From contig CAVVGT010000002.1 in assembly GCA_963747775.1 (NCBI GenBank), forward strand, positions 42,467-106,466: a DNA stretch of 64,000 nucleotides, given 5' to 3'. Both the position numbers and the translations under genes were made by a program. The notes below the pieces were generated by a model that was not told where the DNA came from, searched no databases, and was given only the letters and a program-made list of their open reading frames with translations. Each line of letters starts with the position of its first letter. Positions within the stretch are counted from its first letter, which is position 1. This DNA comes from an uncultured beta proteobacterium. GTDB taxonomy: Bacteria > Pseudomonadota > Gammaproteobacteria > Burkholderiales > SG8-39. Below, piece after piece: positions 4,282 to 62,051 of the stretch.

Positions 4282-5215
4282 CGTCGGGCCCGGCCCGCGC
4301 CGCACCGGGAAGAAGCGCCGTGCACGCGCTGCGGAACCGGTCGCAGCGTTCGGTGAACTCGCGCGTGCTCTTGGGCATGGACACCCGGGCGCGCGTGACG
4401 TGGGTGATGAGGTCCTTGCCCTCGCGGATGAGCTGCAGGGCGTCGGACACCTCCCGCTTCGCCCGCGTCGACGCGTCGGCGGCGAGCCGCGGAGCGAAGT
4501 CGGCGAGGCGCTCGGCGGCGGCGACGAACGTCGTCCAGACCTCGAAGATGTCCGGATCGGTGCGGAGCGTCTCGGTCTCGACCTTGGCCGCTTCCGCGAG
4601 ATTGCCGACGCTCGTCTCGATCCCGGCAAACGCAGGCAGGTCCGCGAAGGTTCTGATCAGCGCGTCGGCGATGGCGTCGATGTCGCGCATCGTCTCCGCG
4701 ATCTTGACGTAGCGGCCTTCGTAGAAGCTCTCGAGCGGCAGCAGGAACGCCTTGAAAGGCTCCCCCCACAGCTCGTCGATGCCTTCTTCGCCGCTCCGGT
4801 GCCGCACCAGCTTGCCGAGCTCCAGCGCTTCCTTCAGGTGTTCGCCGCACGCCCGCATGAGCGGGTTGTCGGACTGGATCTCGATGCCGAGCTTCTGGAT
4901 TTCCACCAGCTGGGTGAACACGCCCGTGGCCCGGTTGAACAGTGCGCCGGCCAGCATGGCGCCCTTGATCCGGCGCCGCGCGGGATCGGTTTCCTGCTCA
5001 TAGGCGCGACGCGCCGCGTCGAGGCGCGTGCCGGGCACGTTCAAGCCGTGCTCGGTGTGGTTGAACAGCCGGCGCGTGAGCGCGGCGATCAGGTCTTTCT
5101 TGGCTTCCAGCGTGTCGGCGGGGACCGGGTAGGTCTTGACCCAGTATCCGTAGTAGTAGACGCGCGGCTGGCCGTCGATCACGCGCCTTGCGCCGAGCGG
5201 GATGGGGGCGTCCAT
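4253..5215 (-). CDS. hypothetical protein (320 aa, predicted mostly helical)
   Basis: ORF 4253..5305(-), starting at the ATG at 5215 (MDAPIPLGARRVIDGQPRVYYYGYW...). A ggagagga RBS lies ~10 nt upstream. Composition is protein-like throughout. I do not recognise a family. Confidence 0.6.
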   Translation of the reverse strand: MDAPIPLGARRVIDGQPRVYYYGYWVKTYPVPADTLEAKKDLIAALTRRLFNHTEHGLNVPGTRLDAARRAYEQETDPARRRIKGAMLAGALFNRATGVFTQLVEIQKLGIEIQSDNPLMRACGEHLKEALELGKLVRHRSGEEGIDELWGEPFKAFLLPLESFYEGRYVKIAETMRDIDAIADALIRTFADLPAFAGIETSVGNLAEAAKVETETLRTDPDIFEVWTTFVAAAERLADFAPRLAADASTRAKREVSDALQLIREGKDLITHVTRARVSMPKSTREFTERCDRFRSACTALLPGAARAGPDDEEGRLPPA

Positions 5216-39455: not shown

Positions 39456-40142
39456 GTGACGACAGGAAGGATTCCGACTCCGCGCATCGGCGACGAGGGC
39501 GGGCTCGAGGCGGCGCGCGCGGCGCGCCGCAGGCTGCTCGCGGCCTCGGTCGCGGGTCTTGCGCTCGCGGGCGTGCCGTACGCCGGGCGCGCGCAGGCGC
39601 GCGTGCCGACGCCGCGCCAGACCGCCGGGCCGTTCTATCCGCGCGACTTTCCGCCCGACGACGACAACGATCTCGTGTCGGTCAAGGGGCAGCCGGGAAT
39701 CGCGAAGGGCGAGCTGCTCCTGCTTGCGGGTGTCGTCGTCGACACGAACGGGAAGCCGGTCGCCGGCGCGCGCGTGGAAATCTGGCAATGCAACGCGCTC
39801 GGCCGTTATCACCATCCGGGCGACCACTCGAGCGCGCCGCTCGATCCGGCCTTCCAGGGCTGGGGCCAGTTCATTACGGGTGCGGACGGGGCCTACCGGT
39901 TCCGCACGATCAAGCCGGTGCCGTATCCCGGCCGCACGCCTCATATTCACTTCCGCGTCACGGGCTCGGGGTTCCAGGACCTCGTCACCCAGATGTACGT
40001 GGAAGGGGAGCCGGGCAACGCGCGCGACGGGCTGTACGGCTCGCTCGACCCGCGCGATCGGGCGTTGGTGACCGTGCGGCTGGACCGCGCCGCCGACGGC
40101 AAGGCGCTGGCGGGACGGTTCGAGATCGTCGTGCGCGTGTAG
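39456..40142 (+). CDS. intradiol ring-cleavage dioxygenase-family protein with twin-arginine signal
   Basis: Same frame as ORF 39315..40142. The start is GTG at 39456 (RBS gagggaaaggga), or GTG at 39435 overlapping the protease stop. It has a Tat motif (ARRRLLAASVAGLALAG). The core is TAGPFYP...VEIWQCNALGRYHHP...GRTPHIHF. Confidence 0.8.
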   Translation: MTTGRIPTPRIGDEGGLEAARAARRRLLAASVAGLALAGVPYAGRAQARVPTPRQTAGPFYPRDFPPDDDNDLVSVKGQPGIAKGELLLLAGVVVDTNGKPVAGARVEIWQCNALGRYHHPGDHSSAPLDPAFQGWGQFITGADGAYRFRTIKPVPYPGRTPHIHFRVTGSGFQDLVTQMYVEGEPGNARDGLYGSLDPRDRALVTVRLDRAADGKALAGRFEIVVRV

Positions 40143-42684: not shown

Positions 42685-43210
42685 GTGATGCGCCGGGTCC
42701 GGTACTACGTCGCGTCGAGCCTGGACGGCTACATCGCGCGCACCGACGGCAGCATCGGTTGGCTGTTCCACGACACCGACTACGGCTACGCGGCGTTCTA
42801 CTCGACCATCGACACGGCCGTCATGGGCCGGACCACCTACGAGCTGTCGCTGTCGTTCGGCGAGTATGCGTTTCCGCGCGTGAAGGTGTACGTCTTCTCC
42901 AGGACGAAGGCCGGGACGCGAGACGAGCGCGCGGAGTTCGTCGCGGGCGACGTCAGCAAGTTCGTTGCAGGCTTGCGCACGCAGCCGGGGCGGGACATCT
43001 GGCTGGTCGGCGGGGCGCAGCTCGCGCGCGAGTTTCTCGCCGCGGACCTGATCGACGAGTACATCGTGTCGATTCATCCGGTGCTTGCTCGGATCGGGGA
43101 TTCCGCTGTTCCCTGTCAACGCGCGTGAGACTGTGCTGCGATTCGAGGGCGCGCGGACGTTTCAGAGCGGGCTCGTGCAGTTGCGGTACGAGCGAGTGGG
43201 CGGGAGCTGA
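42685..43210 (+). pseudogene. RibD C-terminal/dihydrofolate-reductase-like protein, one +1 frameshift near the 3' end
   Basis: ORF 42685..43128 (VRYYVASSLDGYIARTDGSIGWL...DIWLVGGAQLAREFLAADLIDEYIVSIHPVL) loses homology at 43087. After dropping one base (gtgctt-g-ctcgga) it continues LGSGIPLFPVNARETVLRFEGARTFQSGLVQLRYERV to TGA 43208-43210. Confidence 0.75.
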
Positions 43211-43255
43211 AGGAGGAGCGGTGTCGGCGCCAGCGGCGTGACTGTCTACCGGCGC

Positions 43256-43273
43256 CCGGCTATCGATAGCCGG
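43256..43273. repeat. perfect 18-bp palindrome at the GC-content boundary
   Basis: ccggctatcgatagccgg is its own reverse complement. It lies 46 nt after the upstream stop and 90 nt before the ATG at 43364. Confidence 0.8.
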
Positions 43274-43363
43274 TTCCGTGTGCCCCTAGCCAGACCCGGC
43301 TGCAGCTGCCAAGCTTTGATGGTGTCGAATTCAAGTTAGCCGTCACGCCGAAGGGGAAGCGCA

Positions 43364-43702
43364 ATGGCGAAGTTGCATCAGGTATTTGTAGGATGTCCTT
43401 TCGCGACGGAGATCCGAAAGGTCTACGATCGCCTCAAGAAGGAAGTCGAGGTCGAGACGCCGCTGTCCATTGTCTTGGCTGATACCGTGGGCGTAAGTTC
43501 ATCTGACTATCTCCTAGAGAGCATTACTGAACTCATTCGAGATTCGGCTGGGTGCATATTCGACGCCACCGGTGGAAATCCAAACGTATCGCTTGAGGTA
43601 GGCATCGCTCACACGGTGCCAGTGGACTTCATGCTTACCCTCAAGACACGTCAAAAGCGGTCGAACGTAAGGCAACCAAAAGACACTCGTCTACGGAGAT
43701 GA
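43364..43702 (+). CDS. minimal nucleoside-2-deoxyribosyltransferase-like / TIR-like Rossmannoid protein (112 aa) with basic tail
   Basis: ORF 43364..43702, with an aagggga RBS 8 nt upstream. It has QVFVGCPF (strand 1 plus Gly/Pro loop) and CIFDATGGNPNVSLEVGIAH (the Asp...Glu strand-helix pattern of the NDT-like superfamily, recalled from memory). GC is about 50%. Confidence 0.55.
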   Translation: MAKLHQVFVGCPFATEIRKVYDRLKKEVEVETPLSIVLADTVGVSSSDYLLESITELIRDSAGCIFDATGGNPNVSLEVGIAHTVPVDFMLTLKTRQKRSNVRQPKDTRLRR

Positions 43703-44004
43703 CTATGGCTCCGGATCCCACTCCCGCTGCAGGTGCTAACTCGCGCTCGGAGACCGTGCTGCGTCGCCTCCTGGGAGGCATGTCGATCTTCACCTTGCTG
43801 ATGACAGTTCCCCAGGTTCTGACAATATGGGTCGGTCAACAGGCGGCTGGAGTTTCGGTGTTGTCGTGGAGCGCGTATCTTCTGTCCGCGCTGCTCTGGT
43901 TCTGGTTCGGAATCCAGAAACGCGACAAGAACATCTATTTGCTGTGCGTGGGCTGGATCGCACTGAACAGTGCTGTGATCGCGGGCGCTCTAGTCTATGG
44001 ATAG
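43699..44004 (+). CDS. SemiSWEET-like PQ-loop membrane protein (101 aa, 3 TM)
   Basis: ORF 43699..44004. Its ATG overlaps the upstream stop (ATGA). It has the PQ motif in TM1 (LLMTVPQVLTIW), WFWFG in TM2, Asn in TM3 (IALNSAVIAG) and ends ...LVYG. Confidence 0.7.
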   Translation: MTMAPDPTPAAGANSRSETVLRRLLGGMSIFTLLMTVPQVLTIWVGQQAAGVSVLSWSAYLLSALLWFWFGIQKRDKNIYLLCVGWIALNSAVIAGALVYG

Positions 44005-44041
44005 CCACGCAGTAATTGCACGCGCTTAGGGGAGGAAAACA

Positions 44042-44335
44042 ATGCCCGCCTACGTGATCTTCGACGTCGACATCCGCGATCCCGACCGCTATCAGGACTT
44101 CATGAAGAAAGTGAAGCCTGCGCTCGACGAAGCCGGCGCGCGCTACCTGGCTCGGGGCGGGGCGCACAAGGTCTACGAAGGCGACTGGAGTCCCCGGCGC
44201 ATCGTGCTGCTGGAGTTTCCCTCGGTCGCGGCCTGGGAGGCCTTCTACTACGGGCCCGTGTACCAGGGCGTCAAAGCGATACGCGATGAATGCAGCGCCG
44301 CCCGCCTGGTGAGCGTGGAAGGATTCGCGGCGTGA
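44042..44335 (+). CDS. DUF1330-family protein
   Basis: ORF 44042..44335, reading MPAYVIFDVDIRDPDRYQDFMKKVKPALDEAGARYLARGG...IVLLEFPS. A ggggagga RBS lies upstream. Confidence 0.8.
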   Translation: MPAYVIFDVDIRDPDRYQDFMKKVKPALDEAGARYLARGGAHKVYEGDWSPRRIVLLEFPSVAAWEAFYYGPVYQGVKAIRDECSAARLVSVEGFAA

Positions 44336-45894: not shown

Positions 45895-45959
45895 CTCCGG
45901 CGCCGGCATTCCGTCGCGTGGCGGAGCGGCATACAATCGTTGCGGCACAAGGGAACGCC

Positions 45960-46181
45960 ATGAGATCGAGACGATCCGCGCTTTTCCTGACCGTCGCGCT
46001 GCTGGCGCCCGTGTCCGGCGGATGCGCGATGCAGGACGTGTCGCGAAACGTCTACGAAGGCGCCCGGCTCCGCAACGAGAGCCTGCGGGGGACGCCGCGC
46101 GAGACATCGGCGGCGCCGTCGATGAGCTACGACGATTACGAGACGGCGCGCAACAGCGCGGCGACCCCTAAATCTCATTGA
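45960..46181 (+). CDS. small lipoprotein (73 aa)
   Basis: Internal ATG at 45960 of ORF 45651..46181. It has a lipobox (LLAPVSGGC). Confidence 0.55.
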   Translation: MRSRRSALFLTVALLAPVSGGCAMQDVSRNVYEGARLRNESLRGTPRETSAAPSMSYDDYETARNSAATPKSH

Positions 46182-46354
46182 CAGCGATAGAGCGTGGGTC
46201 GTGAGCTCGCGCCGACCGTAGCAAGGAGGCAGGACGGTGTTCCCGGCACCGCGTACGCGCCGGTGCGATTGCAGGCGTTCGCCGTGGCATGATTCCGGGC
46301 GGCCGCGTGGTCGCGATGTCCGCGCACTGCGCGCGGTCTTCTTTCGGAGACGCG

Positions 46355-60269: not shown

Positions 60270-61277
60270 ATGGCCAAGATCTTCCTCAGCTATCGACGCG
60301 ACGACACTCAAGGGGAAGCCGGACACCTAATGGCCGAGCTGCGCCAGCGCTATGGCCCTTCGAGCGTTTTCATGGACATCGGGGCGATCGAGCCGGGCGC
60401 GGACTTCGCCCACACAATCGAGCGGGCCATGCTGGACAGCGAGATCGTGCTGGTTCTGATCGGCAAAGCCTGGCTCGACGCGCGCGACGCGCGCAGTCGG
60501 CGCCGGCTCGAGGATCCACGCGACTGGGTGCGGCTCGAAGTCGAACTCGCACTGGCGAACCGGCGCCGCCTCATTCCCGTGCTGGTCCAAGGATCGCAGA
60601 TGCCAGCCGAAGAGGCGCTGCCCGAGTCGATGCGTCCGATGGTACGGTTAAATGCGCATGAGATTTCGGCACGGCGTTGGGACTATGACTTTCAGGCGCT
60701 CGCAAGTGTGCTGGACCGGCTGTTTGCCGGGGGCGCGCCGGCTGATTCAGCCACCGCGGCGCAACCGACCGCCAAATTCCCGCGCAAGCTCCTGGTAGGC
60801 GGTGGTTTGATCGTGGCAGTCGCAACCTTAGTCACGGCGCTGTATTCCGTGGGTTGGATCGGGTCCAACAAGCCGGACGAATCCAAGCAAAATGTGGAAA
60901 TCAACGCACAACGGAACTCGGGGTCAGACGTCCCCATGATTGAAGCGCTGCAAGCTCAAGTGGCTGAGCTTGAACGACAGGTTAGCAATCTCAAATCCGC
61001 CGCGACACAGAACCCAACCACGACCCCACAGGCTAAGGCACGAGAGTTACAGGACGGTCGAGACAAGATCATTCTTGAAATAGATGCAAGGATTGGGGAC
61101 ATAGATCAACGGAGGCGCGCCGCAGAACAAGCCCTCCCGTTGACGTCCGGTACGATCGAGAGGGCGAAGCTCGAGAACGAGATCCGCAATTTATCTCAAA
61201 TGCGAGTGGCGTTAGAGAATTTGCGTGAGACTACGGAGGAGCTAAGTAAGGACGTCATAACGAAGATTAAGGGATAA
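60270..61277 (+). CDS. TIR-domain protein with one TM helix and C-terminal coiled-coil region (335 aa)
   Basis: ORF 60270..61277. TIR hallmarks are present (MAKIFLSYRRDD, IVLVLIG, DWVRLEVELAL with the conserved Glu, IPVLV). The TM helix is LLVGGGLIVAVATLVTALYSVGWIG. A heptad-like Gln/Glu/Arg-rich tail follows. The 3' half has much lower GC. Confidence 0.85.
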   Translation: MAKIFLSYRRDDTQGEAGHLMAELRQRYGPSSVFMDIGAIEPGADFAHTIERAMLDSEIVLVLIGKAWLDARDARSRRRLEDPRDWVRLEVELALANRRRLIPVLVQGSQMPAEEALPESMRPMVRLNAHEISARRWDYDFQALASVLDRLFAGGAPADSATAAQPTAKFPRKLLVGGGLIVAVATLVTALYSVGWIGSNKPDESKQNVEINAQRNSGSDVPMIEALQAQVAELERQVSNLKSAATQNPTTTPQAKARELQDGRDKIILEIDARIGDIDQRRRAAEQALPLTSGTIERAKLENEIRNLSQMRVALENLRETTEELSKDVITKIKG

Positions 61278-61589
61278 GAGGCGATGACTGCTTCAGCCAT
61301 TGTGCTTGATTGGTCGCCCAACAATGCACTCAACACGGACGCGCAATGGACGCGCGTCGGGTAGCTTAGCCGTTGAACGTCCGTACATGGACGCCCCGGG
61401 TTGCCAAGCGTTCAGTTCGCGATGGATTTAGGCAGGATCGCGACCTCCTCGCAAACGTTGATCTTCTTGAAAGAGCACCGGATGTTAAGCGCCGCCTAGA
61501 CGCCGGGGGGCTGACGCCTGGGGTGGTGGTGGATAACATGTTGCGCAACCTAGCCTTGACCGCCTGCAATCATCGAGGGGGACGTTGGC

Positions 61590-62051
61590 GTGCATCGATA
61601 CGAAGCCCGGATCACCTGGCAGCGCGACGGCGCCAAGTTCACCGACAACCGCTATAGCCGCGGCCACGAGTGGTCGTTCGACGGCGGCGCGACCGTGCGT
61701 GCTTCCTCGTCGCCTCTGACCGTGAAGGTGCCGTACTCGGTTGCGGAAGCGGTCGACCCCGAGGAGGCGCTCGTCGCGGCGACCTCGAGCTGCCACATGC
61801 TCTGGTTCCTGTCGCTCGCCGGCCGGGAGGGCTTCGTCGTGGACCGCTACTCGGACGACGCGTTCGGGGTAATGGAGGACAACGCGGAGGGCAAGCTCGC
61901 CTTCTCCCGCATCACGCTGCGCCCGCGCATCGAGTTCGCGGGCGAGAAGCGACCGTCCGCCGACGAGCTCGCGGCGCTGCACCACTCGGCCCACGAAGAG
62001 TGCTTCATCGCGAACTCGCTGAAGTGCGACGTCGTAATCGAGGGAAGCTAG
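61590..62051 (+). CDS. OsmC/Ohr-family peroxiredoxin-like protein
   Basis: ORF 61590..62051 with a GTG start. It has two conserved Cys contexts (ATSSCHMLWFL and HEECFIANS). Confidence 0.85.
   Translation: MHRYEARITWQRDGAKFTDNRYSRGHEWSFDGGATVRASSSPLTVKVPYSVAEAVDPEEALVAATSSCHMLWFLSLAGREGFVVDRYSDDAFGVMEDNAEGKLAFSRITLRPRIEFAGEKRPSADELAALHHSAHEECFIANSLKCDVVIEGS

Follow-up and report, generated by a model that had tools for sequence, protein, structure and literature searches.

A low-GC islet joins a truncated TIR/NDT-like gene to an unrelated SemiSWEET-like gene

Introduction

Do two short genes that overlap by a few nucleotides and lie together in a patch of low GC content form a functional unit, or did they come to be neighbours by chance? 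This question is raised by a locus in a 64,000 nt stretch of DNA from an uncultured beta proteobacterium, which is referred to here as the window. A first-pass annotation of the locus had described a two-gene cassette in which a minimal NDT/TIR-like enzyme (ORF1) is translationally coupled to a SemiSWEET-like membrane protein (ORF2), and had proposed that the pair might be a compact defence or toxin module, or a horizontally acquired salvage pair. Here we analyse composition, gene families, the junction between both reading frames and their co-occurrence in related loci. The features of the locus are listed in Table 1.

Table 1. Features of the islet and its borders (positions in the window).
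Feature	Position	Strand	Remarks
Perfect 18 bp palindrome CCGGCTATCGATAGCCGG	43256..43273	.	GC-rich spacer after the RibD_C-like gene
Upstream region of the truncated TIR-like gene	43301..43363	+	GC 0.56; retained together with the gene fragment
GTTAGC motif	43335-43340	+	in the ORF1 upstream region
Purine-rich ribosome binding site GAAGGGGAAG	43350-43359	+	before the ORF1 start
ORF1	43364-43702	+	112 aa; from the ORF list
ORF1 N-terminal domain, predicted NDT/TIR-like, residues 1-99	43364..43660	+	strands 1-4, helices 1-3; cut in the Lys/Arg-rich linker
ORF1 tail, residues ~100-112, NVRQPKDTRLRR then TGA	43661..43702	+	read from the SemiSWEET 5′ leader
5′ leader of the SemiSWEET-like gene	43662..43704	+	GGAG ribosome binding site 43695-43698
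ORF2 as called from the upstream ATG	43699-44004	+	101 aa
SemiSWEET-like gene	43705..44004	+	99 aa from the family start; three hydrophobic helices, PQ, conserved Trp
Right border of the foreign patch	44007..44008	.	SemiSWEET-locus homology stops at ~44006; L142 homology from 44008

Results

The low-GC islet is foreign DNA

The islet (43301-44007) has a GC content of 0.547, compared to 0.683 and 0.695 in its flanks. Measured in 200 bp windows GC is 0.51-0.60 from 43300 to 44100 and 0.64-0.75 on either side, and the 750 bp window with the lowest GC of the whole 64 kb starts at 43311 (GC 0.545; window mean 0.689, sd 0.031). Third codon positions follow the same trend, with a GC3 of 0.60 for ORF1 and 0.69 for ORF2 versus 0.84-0.95 in the neighbouring genes. 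All three measures bear out the drop in GC that had been annotated between ~43290 and ~44040, and on composition the proposed horizontal acquisition of the patch holds as well. Only one further region of similarly low GC is found in the window, at ~60.4-61.8 kb. The window also contains another low-GC insert, independent of this one, that carries a TIR gene.

The right border coincides with a break in synteny. In the closest relative, contig L142 (GlcD 91% aa), the DUF1330-GlcD region aligns from exactly 44008 onwards, and the gene upstream of this border is a different one from that in the window. Since GC and GC3 are low and L142 aligns only from 44008, next to a different upstream gene, we conclude that the patch is real foreign DNA. 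The analysis yielded no clean empty site; the L142 contig does not contain the left flank of the window, and the next relatives (L143 and L144) have no synteny upstream. A search around the islet for repeats flanking it in direct or inverted orientation, for IS ends and for attC-like sites returned just short repeats at chance level, the islet has no Rfam match, and promoter or terminator consensus sites were not found around it. Its neighbours in the window encode GST, GNAT, RibD_C, DUF1330 and GlcD and are metabolic rather than defence genes. Just upstream of the islet, the RibD_C-like gene contains a probable frameshift (~43085-43128). Two other possible origins of the patch were considered. 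A tRNA-linked island was rejected, as the tRNA-Pro reported by ARAGORN (40051-40138, 88 nt) is situated where a coding region ends and matches no Rfam tRNA at E ≤ 1. An origin from a phage is unsupported, a viral contig collection containing no relative of either family.

The islet had been described as entered through a palindrome. The palindrome is indeed a perfect one of 18 bp, but its occurrence is within chance expectation. Its surroundings (43211-43300) have 71% GC and lie off the composition break, and it is probably outside the islet proper. The window contains two perfect 18 bp palindromes, compared to a mean of 1.67 in first-order Markov simulations, 84% of which yield at least one. 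The palindrome is missing from all 141 loci checked. Being at chance-level frequency and common to no related locus, it was rejected as an entry signal.

ORF1 is the first part of a longer gene

ORF1 itself has no Pfam, NCBIfam, PADLOC or PDB-sequence match. Direct family scans having given nothing usable, its fold was approached via a structure model and remote relatives. The AlphaFold model (pLDDT 75) shows four strands along with three helices; the top Foldseek match is the NDT 2a0k (E 6.5e-4, TMq 0.64), followed in this order by DNPH1, SPARTA TIR, TIR-STING and ThsB. Among 70 remote family members, 26 match PF10137 (best 2.9e-6) and five match PF05014 (best 3.7e-7); some remote superfamily members match the PADLOC model for the CBASS TIR effector. 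Both lines bear out the annotated NDT/TIR-like relationship, and the assignment of the modelled N-terminal domain to this Rossmannoid fold appears largely right. The motifs quoted for ORF1 and ORF2 are present in the respective sequences.

The "minimal" enzyme, in contrast, is a 3′-truncated fragment. The family of ORF1 comprises 1,499 representative clusters at E ≤ 1e-3, and its members are ~226-235 aa long (e.g., P0176, 226 aa), with similarity to ORF1 stopping at residue ~99-100. In the alignment, family members continue after TRKPR with ...IISDLQGRNRIEYKTY...LPYMKRW...GRGGGYYYP(T)K. This C-terminal part consists of a fifth strand (IISDLxG) and a helical domain, which may be a winged helix. 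According to tblastn, about 70 of the 86 family loci have it in the same frame after the N-terminal part, whereas it is found nowhere in the 64 kb window at E ≤ 10. The fold expected of an NDT/TIR-like Rossmannoid domain is a flavodoxin-like one with a parallel sheet of five strands. In the model of a longer relative PIISD forms a further beta strand after the linker, which the four-stranded model of the window copy lacks; the family falls into this fold class, but the copy in the window is incomplete. The aspartate of the missing SDLxG motif (D122) is nearly invariant across the wider superfamily. ORF1 is thus the first ~99 codons of a longer TIR/NDT-like gene.

The part that remains is well preserved. 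Its 99 codons are free of stops and frameshifts, and all nine invariant residues of the family are kept, among them D67, N72, N74 and E78. The invariant N-terminal motif of the family, FD...NPNVxLExGxA, reads FD...NPNVSLEVG in the window copy, and the invariant E78 is located in the helix after strand 3. Upstream, the good ribosome binding site that had been noted before ORF1 is present, and a motif similar to the GTTAGC of the window, (C)GTTAG(N)C, is found 25-35 nt ahead of the start in several other loci of the family (L003, L005, L063, L064, L066, and L067). The motif may act as a promoter element; a sigma-70 consensus was not found in the ORF1 upstream region. The mean dN of the fragment is 0.161, compared to 0.178 among intact relatives. 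Because dS is saturated, dN/dS is uninformative on whether ORF1 is a pseudogene. The lack of excess non-synonymous divergence means that the truncation is recent or that the fragment is still selected, two cases that these data cannot separate.

In modelled fold, the N-terminal domain resembles the CAP12/Pycsar TIR-like proteins (PF10137) and the NDT/DNPH1 proteins (PF05014), and the family shares with both an acidic residue and a Glu-Gly motif after strand 3 (in the FD...NPNVSLEVG stretch). It differs from them in its stand-alone architecture with a helical C-terminal domain and in having no recurrent cyclase, sensor or effector partner. The ORF1 of the window differs further in lacking strand 5 and everything beyond it.

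An intact, conserved frame with a good ribosome binding site and a dN that is not raised could also be expected of a functional stand-alone N-domain protein, acting independently of the SemiSWEET-like protein, for instance as a decoy or as a fragment with a dominant-negative or regulatory effect. The fragment is modelled with moderate confidence, and two loci from independent samples (L001 and L002) carry an in-frame stop in the same linker and thus represent a natural split form, which makes a product consisting of the N-domain only not unthinkable. Unlike the window, however, L001 and L002 still encode the C-terminal part directly after the stop. Other short copies of the family look like decay products: an IS1595 transposase cuts L005, the sequence of L006 diverges beyond IISDL, and L003 contains a frameshift. 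Moreover, the modelled four-stranded sheet is missing a core strand, and the tail of ORF1 is an accidental leader sequence, as described below. We therefore consider a stand-alone function of the fragment unlikely.

ORF2 is a divergent SemiSWEET-like protein

ORF2 had been called from an upstream ATG (43699). The family, however, starts at the second ATG (43705): the majority of relatives have 99 aa, the first ATG is replaced by GTG or ACA in several of them, and the GGAG is spaced 0 nt from the first and 6 nt from the second ATG. Kyte-Doolittle analysis gives hydrophobic segments at residues 21-45, 47-71, and 76-99. Residues 18-98 align to the solved three-TM SemiSWEET 4qnd with an E of 3.5e-6 for ORF2 alone and of 3.7e-9 with the family profile, and 23 of 25 relatives match MtN3_slv, which supports the SemiSWEET-like annotation. 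The protein is a divergent member, scoring below the curated cut-offs of Pfam MtN3_slv (15.3 vs. 23.7 bits), PQ-loop (14.2 vs. 22) and NCBIfam SemiSWEET_3 (E 4e-8, 33.3 bits, cut-off 100). With a dN/dS of 0.06-0.11 against relatives, the intact gene is evolving under strong purifying selection.

Most of the SemiSWEET hallmarks listed for ORF2 stand. It resembles the solved SemiSWEETs of Vibrio sp. (4qnd), Leptospira biflexa (4qnc) and E. coli (4x5m) in its ~99 aa and three hydrophobic helices. The PQ in TM1 (P38 and Q39, invariant in 25 relatives) aligns with the PQ of 4qnd and 4qnc, and W67 of LWFWFG is conserved and aligns with the pocket Trp of the Lb and Vs proteins. The Asn cited for TM3 (N90), on the other hand, occupies a variable D/N position and does not correspond to the canonical pocket Asn. 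The latter (Lb N64) is aligned with the invariant C83 of ORF2 in the profile alignment, and in the 4qnd alignment it falls at an insertion adjoining P/C. According to a review of 1,922 SemiSWEETs the pocket Asn is highly conserved (PMC5972207). An invariant Cys in its place suggests that the solute is perhaps not a canonical sugar, and sugar-metabolism neighbours were not seen at the loci of the clade.

Clustered at 90% identity, the SemiSWEET-like clade comprises more than 2,000 clusters, the best-scoring 120 of which are 79-95% identical to ORF2. It is further set apart from the solved proteins by an N-terminal extension of ~20 aa that is rich in Pro and Ala and by members of 55-95% identity in MAGs assigned to several phyla, with unrelated gene contexts. 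Cross-phylum transfer of SemiSWEETs has been described as rare (PMC5972207).

The overlap belongs to the leader of the SemiSWEET-like gene

The two reading frames overlap as annotated, with the ATGA at 43699-43702 containing both the stop of ORF1 and the start of ORF2 as called; the stop lies 2 nt ahead of the family SemiSWEET start. This arrangement had been read as translational coupling, but it does not show that the two genes are partners. Comparison with SemiSWEET loci lacking ORF1 showed that the stop and the overlap lie within the conserved leader of the SemiSWEET-like gene itself. Homology to such loci starts at 43662 (L017) or 43678-43679 (L018, L145-L150), and the sequence AAAGACACTCGTCTACGGAG(A/G)TGAC(T/C)ATGG is conserved in all of them. 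The 3′ two-thirds of the ORF1 tail stretch, including GGAG and TGA, thus recur in eight loci, none of which has an ORF1 relative. Altogether, in about 50 loci the nucleotide similarity to SemiSWEET loci sets in at 43662-43690 and ends at 44003-44010. At the position where the ORF1 tail begins, the proteins of the ORF1 family continue differently. Two unrelated pieces are therefore joined at about 43655-43662, and because the stop, the GGAG and the overlap belong to the SemiSWEET leader, the ATGA coupling is a by-product of the junction at ~43660.

Such a junction might also arise during assembly, from chimeric reads of different organisms in this metagenome-derived sequence. The probable frameshift in the RibD_C-like gene hints at an imperfect sequence, and the exact product of neither ORF is on record elsewhere. 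However, the patch lies between two high-GC segments, the right one of which is colinear with L142 from 44008, and a chimera would be likelier to end a contig than to place two foreign pieces, 0.7 kb in all, within it. The independent low-GC insert with a TIR gene in the same window argues against an artefact as well, which we regard as highly improbable.

The two genes do not co-occur elsewhere

An ORF1 relative was found within up to 5 kb at none of 55 species-representative SemiSWEET loci and at none of the six closest metagenomic SemiSWEET loci. Conversely, none of the 86 ORF1-family loci contains a SemiSWEET relative, where many of the contigs are short and the context evidence is limited beyond the immediate downstream position. 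The homologues are thus never adjacent in the 147 related loci, an outcome that had been named beforehand as speaking against a two-gene system. Beyond local synteny among close relatives, neither family has a recurrent neighbour; MOSC/YiiM downstream of the nearest SemiSWEET copies is such a case of local synteny. The neighbours of the ORF1 family are mostly housekeeping genes, with merely sporadic defence matches. The suggested comparison with known defence systems by PADLOC gave no match for either protein.

These data bear on the annotated idea of a defence, toxin or salvage pair, according to which both genes would constitute a genuine module of recent formation, in which the TIR/NDT-like fragment makes or cleaves a nucleotide-derived molecule that is passed or sensed by the SemiSWEET-like channel. 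The fold assignments hold, the invariant D67, N72, N74, and E78 are kept in a fragment without excess dN, and with stop and start 2 nt apart coupling is physically possible. Yet the pairing is absent from all related loci, the overlap is the SemiSWEET leader sequence in loci without ORF1, the fragment has lost the near-invariant SDLxG strand and the entire C-terminal domain, and the metabolic surroundings and the PADLOC result do not point to defence. The module is largely refuted by the lack of co-occurrence, and we give it very little credence. A system made of ORF1 and ORF2 is not supported; the two were joined by chance, the SemiSWEET-like gene being unrelated to ORF1 and widespread.

The likeness to Thoeris and to CBASS/Pycsar systems with TM effectors is superficial and amounts to a low-GC patch in which a TIR-like ORF adjoins the gene of a small membrane protein. 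The pair differs from them in that its adjacency is not conserved and in its membrane protein, a transporter homologue that occurs on its own at more than 60 loci. A keyword search of a systematic survey of TIR signalling systems returned neither SWEET nor PQ-loop.

Discussion

The islet is most probably a mosaic of two unrelated, horizontally acquired pieces at a synteny breakpoint upstream of DUF1330-glcD. The first piece (43301-43660) consists of the upstream region and the first ~99 codons of a stand-alone family gene of ~230 aa, and the second (43662-44006) is a SemiSWEET-like gene in full length, together with the leader and ribosome binding site that belong to it. Illegitimate recombination or a deletion at about 43655-43662 would have joined both; the first piece has lost the fifth strand (SDLxG) and the C-terminal domain. 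The ORF1 fragment would then be a recent gene remnant that has no dedicated role, and the SemiSWEET-like protein the functional cargo, judged by its sequence probably a homodimeric three-helix uniporter for a small solute.

The SemiSWEET-like gene may now be transcribed from the upstream region of the remnant, and ribosomes translating the remnant would terminate 2 nt before the SemiSWEET start. An incidental translational coupling of the remnant and the SemiSWEET-like gene is possible and has no bearing on function. That the fragment is a newly captured, expressed upstream ORF which controls SemiSWEET translation, or a partner acting on a nucleotide-derived metabolite, seems very unlikely; if true, a gene fragment would here have given rise to a new two-gene module.

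With a mosaic of horizontally acquired DNA at a breakpoint of synteny as the preferred explanation, the finding is an ordinary one. Since the proposed conflict system of a TIR-like and a SemiSWEET protein is unsupported, the pair does not merit further study as a defence system. As a worked example, the islet shows clearly how a truncated gene and the leader of an unrelated one can mimic a translationally coupled operon. It also draws attention to both families. The ~230 aa TIR/NDT-like family with its helical C-terminal domain is uncharacterised, stands alone and is frequently truncated. The SemiSWEET-like clade is unusually conserved, occurs in MAGs of several phyla and has an apparently altered substrate pocket.

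A low-GC patch with two overlapping reading frames

The first-pass annotation had described a low-GC islet with two overlapping reading frames, and this description was borne out. In 200-bp windows the GC content is 0.51-0.60 between about 43300 and 44100, compared with 0.64-0.75 around it; the patch as a whole has 54.7% GC, against 68.3% and 69.5% in the 2-kb flanks. The lowest-GC 750-bp window of all 64 kb lies in the patch, about 4.7 sd under the mean. Third-position GC is 0.60 in ORF1 and 0.69 in ORF2, compared with 0.84-0.95 in five neighbouring genes, and the patch is therefore compositionally foreign. The stop of ORF1 and the start of ORF2 overlap in the sequence ATGA.

Features in and around the patch. 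Positions refer to the window.
Feature	Position	Strand	Size or remark
Patch	43301-44007
ORF1	43364-43702	+	112 aa
ORF2	43699-44004	+	101 aa
GGAG	43695-43698
Second ATG of ORF2	43705	+
Palindrome	43256-43273		18 bp, perfect
(C)GTTAG(N)C motif	43335-43340
RibD_C/DHFR-like gene	42685-43210	+	two overlapping frames, 42685-43128 and 43085-43210
tRNA-Pro(TGG), rejected	40051-40138		88 nt
TIR_2 gene	60270-61277	+	335 aa
Second low-GC region	~60450-61820

The islet was also thought to be entered through a palindrome. The palindrome exists and is perfect, but it lies in a GC-rich portion of the spacer and is common to none of the related loci in which it was sought. The window contains two perfect 18-bp palindromes, compared with a mean of 1.67 in first-order Markov simulations (84% of runs had one or more), and we rejected it as a remarkable feature.

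Only one other part of the window shows a strong dip in GC (750-bp minimum 0.549). It encodes a protein with the N-terminus MAKIFLSYRRDD and a canonical TIR_2 domain (PF13676, 56 bits vs. a cut-off of 28); behind this domain come a hydrophobic helix and a long tail resembling a coiled coil. Downstream of the gene is an OsmC-like one. The TIR_2 gene is a candidate for a stand-alone defence gene of the TIR-transmembrane type.

ORF1 is a truncated member of a longer family

ORF1 matched neither curated models (Pfam, NCBIfam, PADLOC) nor solved-protein sequences. Its AlphaFold model (pLDDT 75; four strands, three helices) has nucleoside 2-deoxyribosyltransferases as best PDB matches (2a0k, E 6.5e-4, TMq 0.64), followed by DNPH1 and then the TIR domains of SPARTA, TIR-STING and ThsB. 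A profile search of 1.84 billion representatives identified 1,499 superfamily proteins (E<=1e-3), whose usual length is about 225-235 aa. The domain scan covered 70 of these: 26 matched PF10137 (CAP12/Pycsar TIR), five PF05014 (NDT), and in a few the C-terminal part matched winged-helix models. Some members match the PADLOC CBASS TIR effector model. The NDT/TIR-like fold assigned on first reading is thus largely right.

The accompanying view of ORF1 as a minimal enzyme did not hold. Relatives were found 55 times in the large protein set and at 93 confirmed places in metagenome contigs, the best 80 of which were kept as loci. The aligned family is longer than ORF1: ...DFLLTLxTRKPR is followed by a Lys/Arg/Ala-rich linker, by IISDLQGRNRIEYKTY..LK.QL..RYL..LPYMKRW and by a helical C-terminal part ending in ...RGRxGGxYYP(T)K (complete representative P0176, 226 aa). 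PIISD forms an additional beta strand beyond the linker in the model of a longer relative, and the Asp of SDLxG is almost invariant across the superfamily. In a tblastn census the C-part follows the N-part in frame in about 70 of 86 loci, and most of the remaining loci end at contig ends. In the window, family similarity extends no further than residue ~99-100, and a search of all 64 kb as permissive as E<=10 gave no sign of the C-part. Without the PIISD core strand and the whole C-terminal domain, ORF1 is a truncated gene.

The 99 retained codons are intact, every invariant residue is kept and non-synonymous change is not in excess (mean dN 0.161 vs. 0.178 among intact relatives, with dS saturated). 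This fits a recent truncation; it would also be compatible with a selected N-terminal fragment that has a function of its own, which we consider unlikely. Other short forms of the family look like decay: one is cut by an IS1595 transposase (L005), one diverges past IISDL (L006) and one is frameshifted (L003).

In two independent samples (L001, 6313-6321; L002, 643-651) an in-frame stop in the Lys/Arg linker leaves an N-part of 104 aa and, still encoded in the same frame, a C-part of 117 aa. Natural splitting of the gene, readthrough of the stop or early decay could each explain this. At two further loci (L070, ~4870-4960; L071, ~4880-4960) the gene starts a few tens of bases past a tRNA-3′-end-like sequence (GGGTTGCCGGTTCGATCCCGGCTGGCTCCA). 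The 3′ end of a tRNA is a typical island integration site. The (C)GTTAG(N)C motif is also present upstream of the gene in L003, L005, L063, L064, L066 and L067, distantly related loci, about 25-35 nt 5′ of the start codon, and may be a promoter or regulatory element.

ORF2 resembles SemiSWEETs

ORF2 alone matches the solved SemiSWEET 4qnd (E 3.5e-6), more weakly 9kon, 4qnc, 4x5m and 4rng, and NCBIfam SemiSWEET_3 (E 4e-8), with scores under the curated Pfam and NCBIfam cut-offs. A 25-relative profile raises the 4qnd match to E 3.7e-9; MtN3_slv is matched by 23 of 25 relatives and PQ-loop by 20. The protein has three hydrophobic segments, its invariant PQ aligns with the PQ of solved SemiSWEETs, and the Trp in LWFWFG with their pocket Trp. 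The conserved SemiSWEET core consists of PQ, Trp and Asn (review of 1,922 SemiSWEETs; PMC5972207). ORF2 shares the first two, whereas the pocket Asn (Lb N64) is replaced in the alignment by an invariant Cys; the Asn in TM3 that had been named as a hallmark is a variable D/N position. Apart from this residue the original call stands, and by these matches and residues ORF2 is a divergent SemiSWEET-like protein. Values of dN/dS of 0.06-0.11 against eight relatives indicate that the gene is functional.

At a 90% identity threshold the clade, a very large one, forms more than 2,095 clusters, of which the best-scoring 120 are 79-95% identical to ORF2. Relatives in 55 species-representative genomes carry the labels Burkholderiales, Binatia, Udaeobacter, Chloroflexota, Pyrinomonadaceae, Xanthobacteraceae and Myxococcaceae. 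Across MAGs labelled Betaproteobacteria, Binatia, Verrucomicrobiota (Udaeobacter), Chloroflexota, Acidobacteriota and Myxococcota (L007-L061, window 43705-44004) identity is 55-95%, nucleotide similarity is limited to the ORF plus <=40 bp of leader, and no neighbour is conserved. This suggests a single small gene often transferred across phyla, which differs from the reported pattern for SemiSWEETs (PMC5972207); binning errors are possible. Residue 82 (~43942-43944), adjoining the invariant Cys, is Leu in the window (NIYLLCVGW) and Pro in nearly all relatives (NIYLPCVGW). In the closest Burkholderiales MAG locus (L017, 3400-4840, minus strand) an IS110-type transposase, apparently in two frames, is located immediately upstream of the SemiSWEET gene.

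The overlap lies in the SemiSWEET leader

The ATGA overlap had been read as translational coupling. In blastn comparisons with SemiSWEET loci, similarity spans only about 43662/43690 to 44003-44010 in every locus. The stretch AAAGACACTCGTCTACGGAG(A/G)TGAC(T/C)ATGGCTCC, which takes in GGAG and the terminal TGA of ORF1, is conserved among the closest SemiSWEET loci (L017, L018, L145-L150), none of which has an ORF1 relative. Several have GTG or ACA in place of the first ATG, most ORF2-family proteins are 99 aa long, and GGAG is spaced 6 nt from the second ATG. The leader conserved without ORF1, the alternative first codons and this spacing show that the last ~13 codons and stop of ORF1 derive from the leader that belongs to the SemiSWEET gene, so the overlap does not speak for partnership. 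Two pieces are joined at about 43655-43662, and the "coupling" is a by-product of the join. No repeats, IS ends or attC-like sites were found flanking the patch.

Genomic context and co-occurrence

All genes flanking the patch lie on the plus strand and are metabolic: GST, a GNAT acetyltransferase and a RibD_C-like reductase, with DUF1330 and then GlcD on the downstream side. The reductase gene, upstream of the patch, has an apparent frameshift consistent with a 1-nt indel near 43090 (HPVL/LGSGIPLF); either the gene is a pseudogene or the sequence is in error. The tRNA-Pro predicted by ARAGORN coincides with the 3′ end of a coding region and was matched by no Rfam tRNA model at E<=1, which makes a false positive very probable.

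The closest relative found, contig L142 (GlcD 91% aa identity), aligns from exactly 44008 on with 90.5% nucleotide identity; the membrane-protein gene that precedes its DUF1330 is a different one. Thus, the right border is precise and the patch coincides with a break in synteny; no clean empty site was found. That the patch is an artefact of assembly is very hard to credit. Downstream of glcD the two lineages differ by a second indel: L142 (2349-4221, vs. window 45895-46246) carries a stretch of about 1.9 kb, absent from the window, with a 236-aa ORF and a gene resembling acyl-CoA:6-APA acyltransferases.

The pair had been proposed as a defence, toxin or salvage system. No ORF1 relative was found near the SemiSWEET gene in 55 genome loci (flanks of at most 5 kb, shorter near contig ends) or at the six closest metagenomic loci, which are flanked by a methyltransferase or lipoyl-synthase-like gene and a MOSC/YiiM gene; conversely, none of 86 ORF1-family loci contains a SemiSWEET gene. 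Relatives of either family were absent from the viral contig set, and neither family has a recurrent partner gene. The TIR-like family mostly adjoins housekeeping genes; matches to defence models among its neighbours are sporadic. Homologues of the two genes are thus adjacent in none of the loci compared, an outcome that the first-pass annotation itself had named as refuting its proposal, and a true new two-gene module is highly improbable.

The observation is thus largely confirmed, the palindrome excepted. The evidence supports the assigned domains but not the proposed system, and the patch is probably an accidental mosaic. The uncharacterised TIR-like family of ~230 aa and the cross-phylum SemiSWEET-like clade with its altered pocket are side observations of modest interest; horizontal acquisition and the decay of a gene account for the finding itself, which is an ordinary one.
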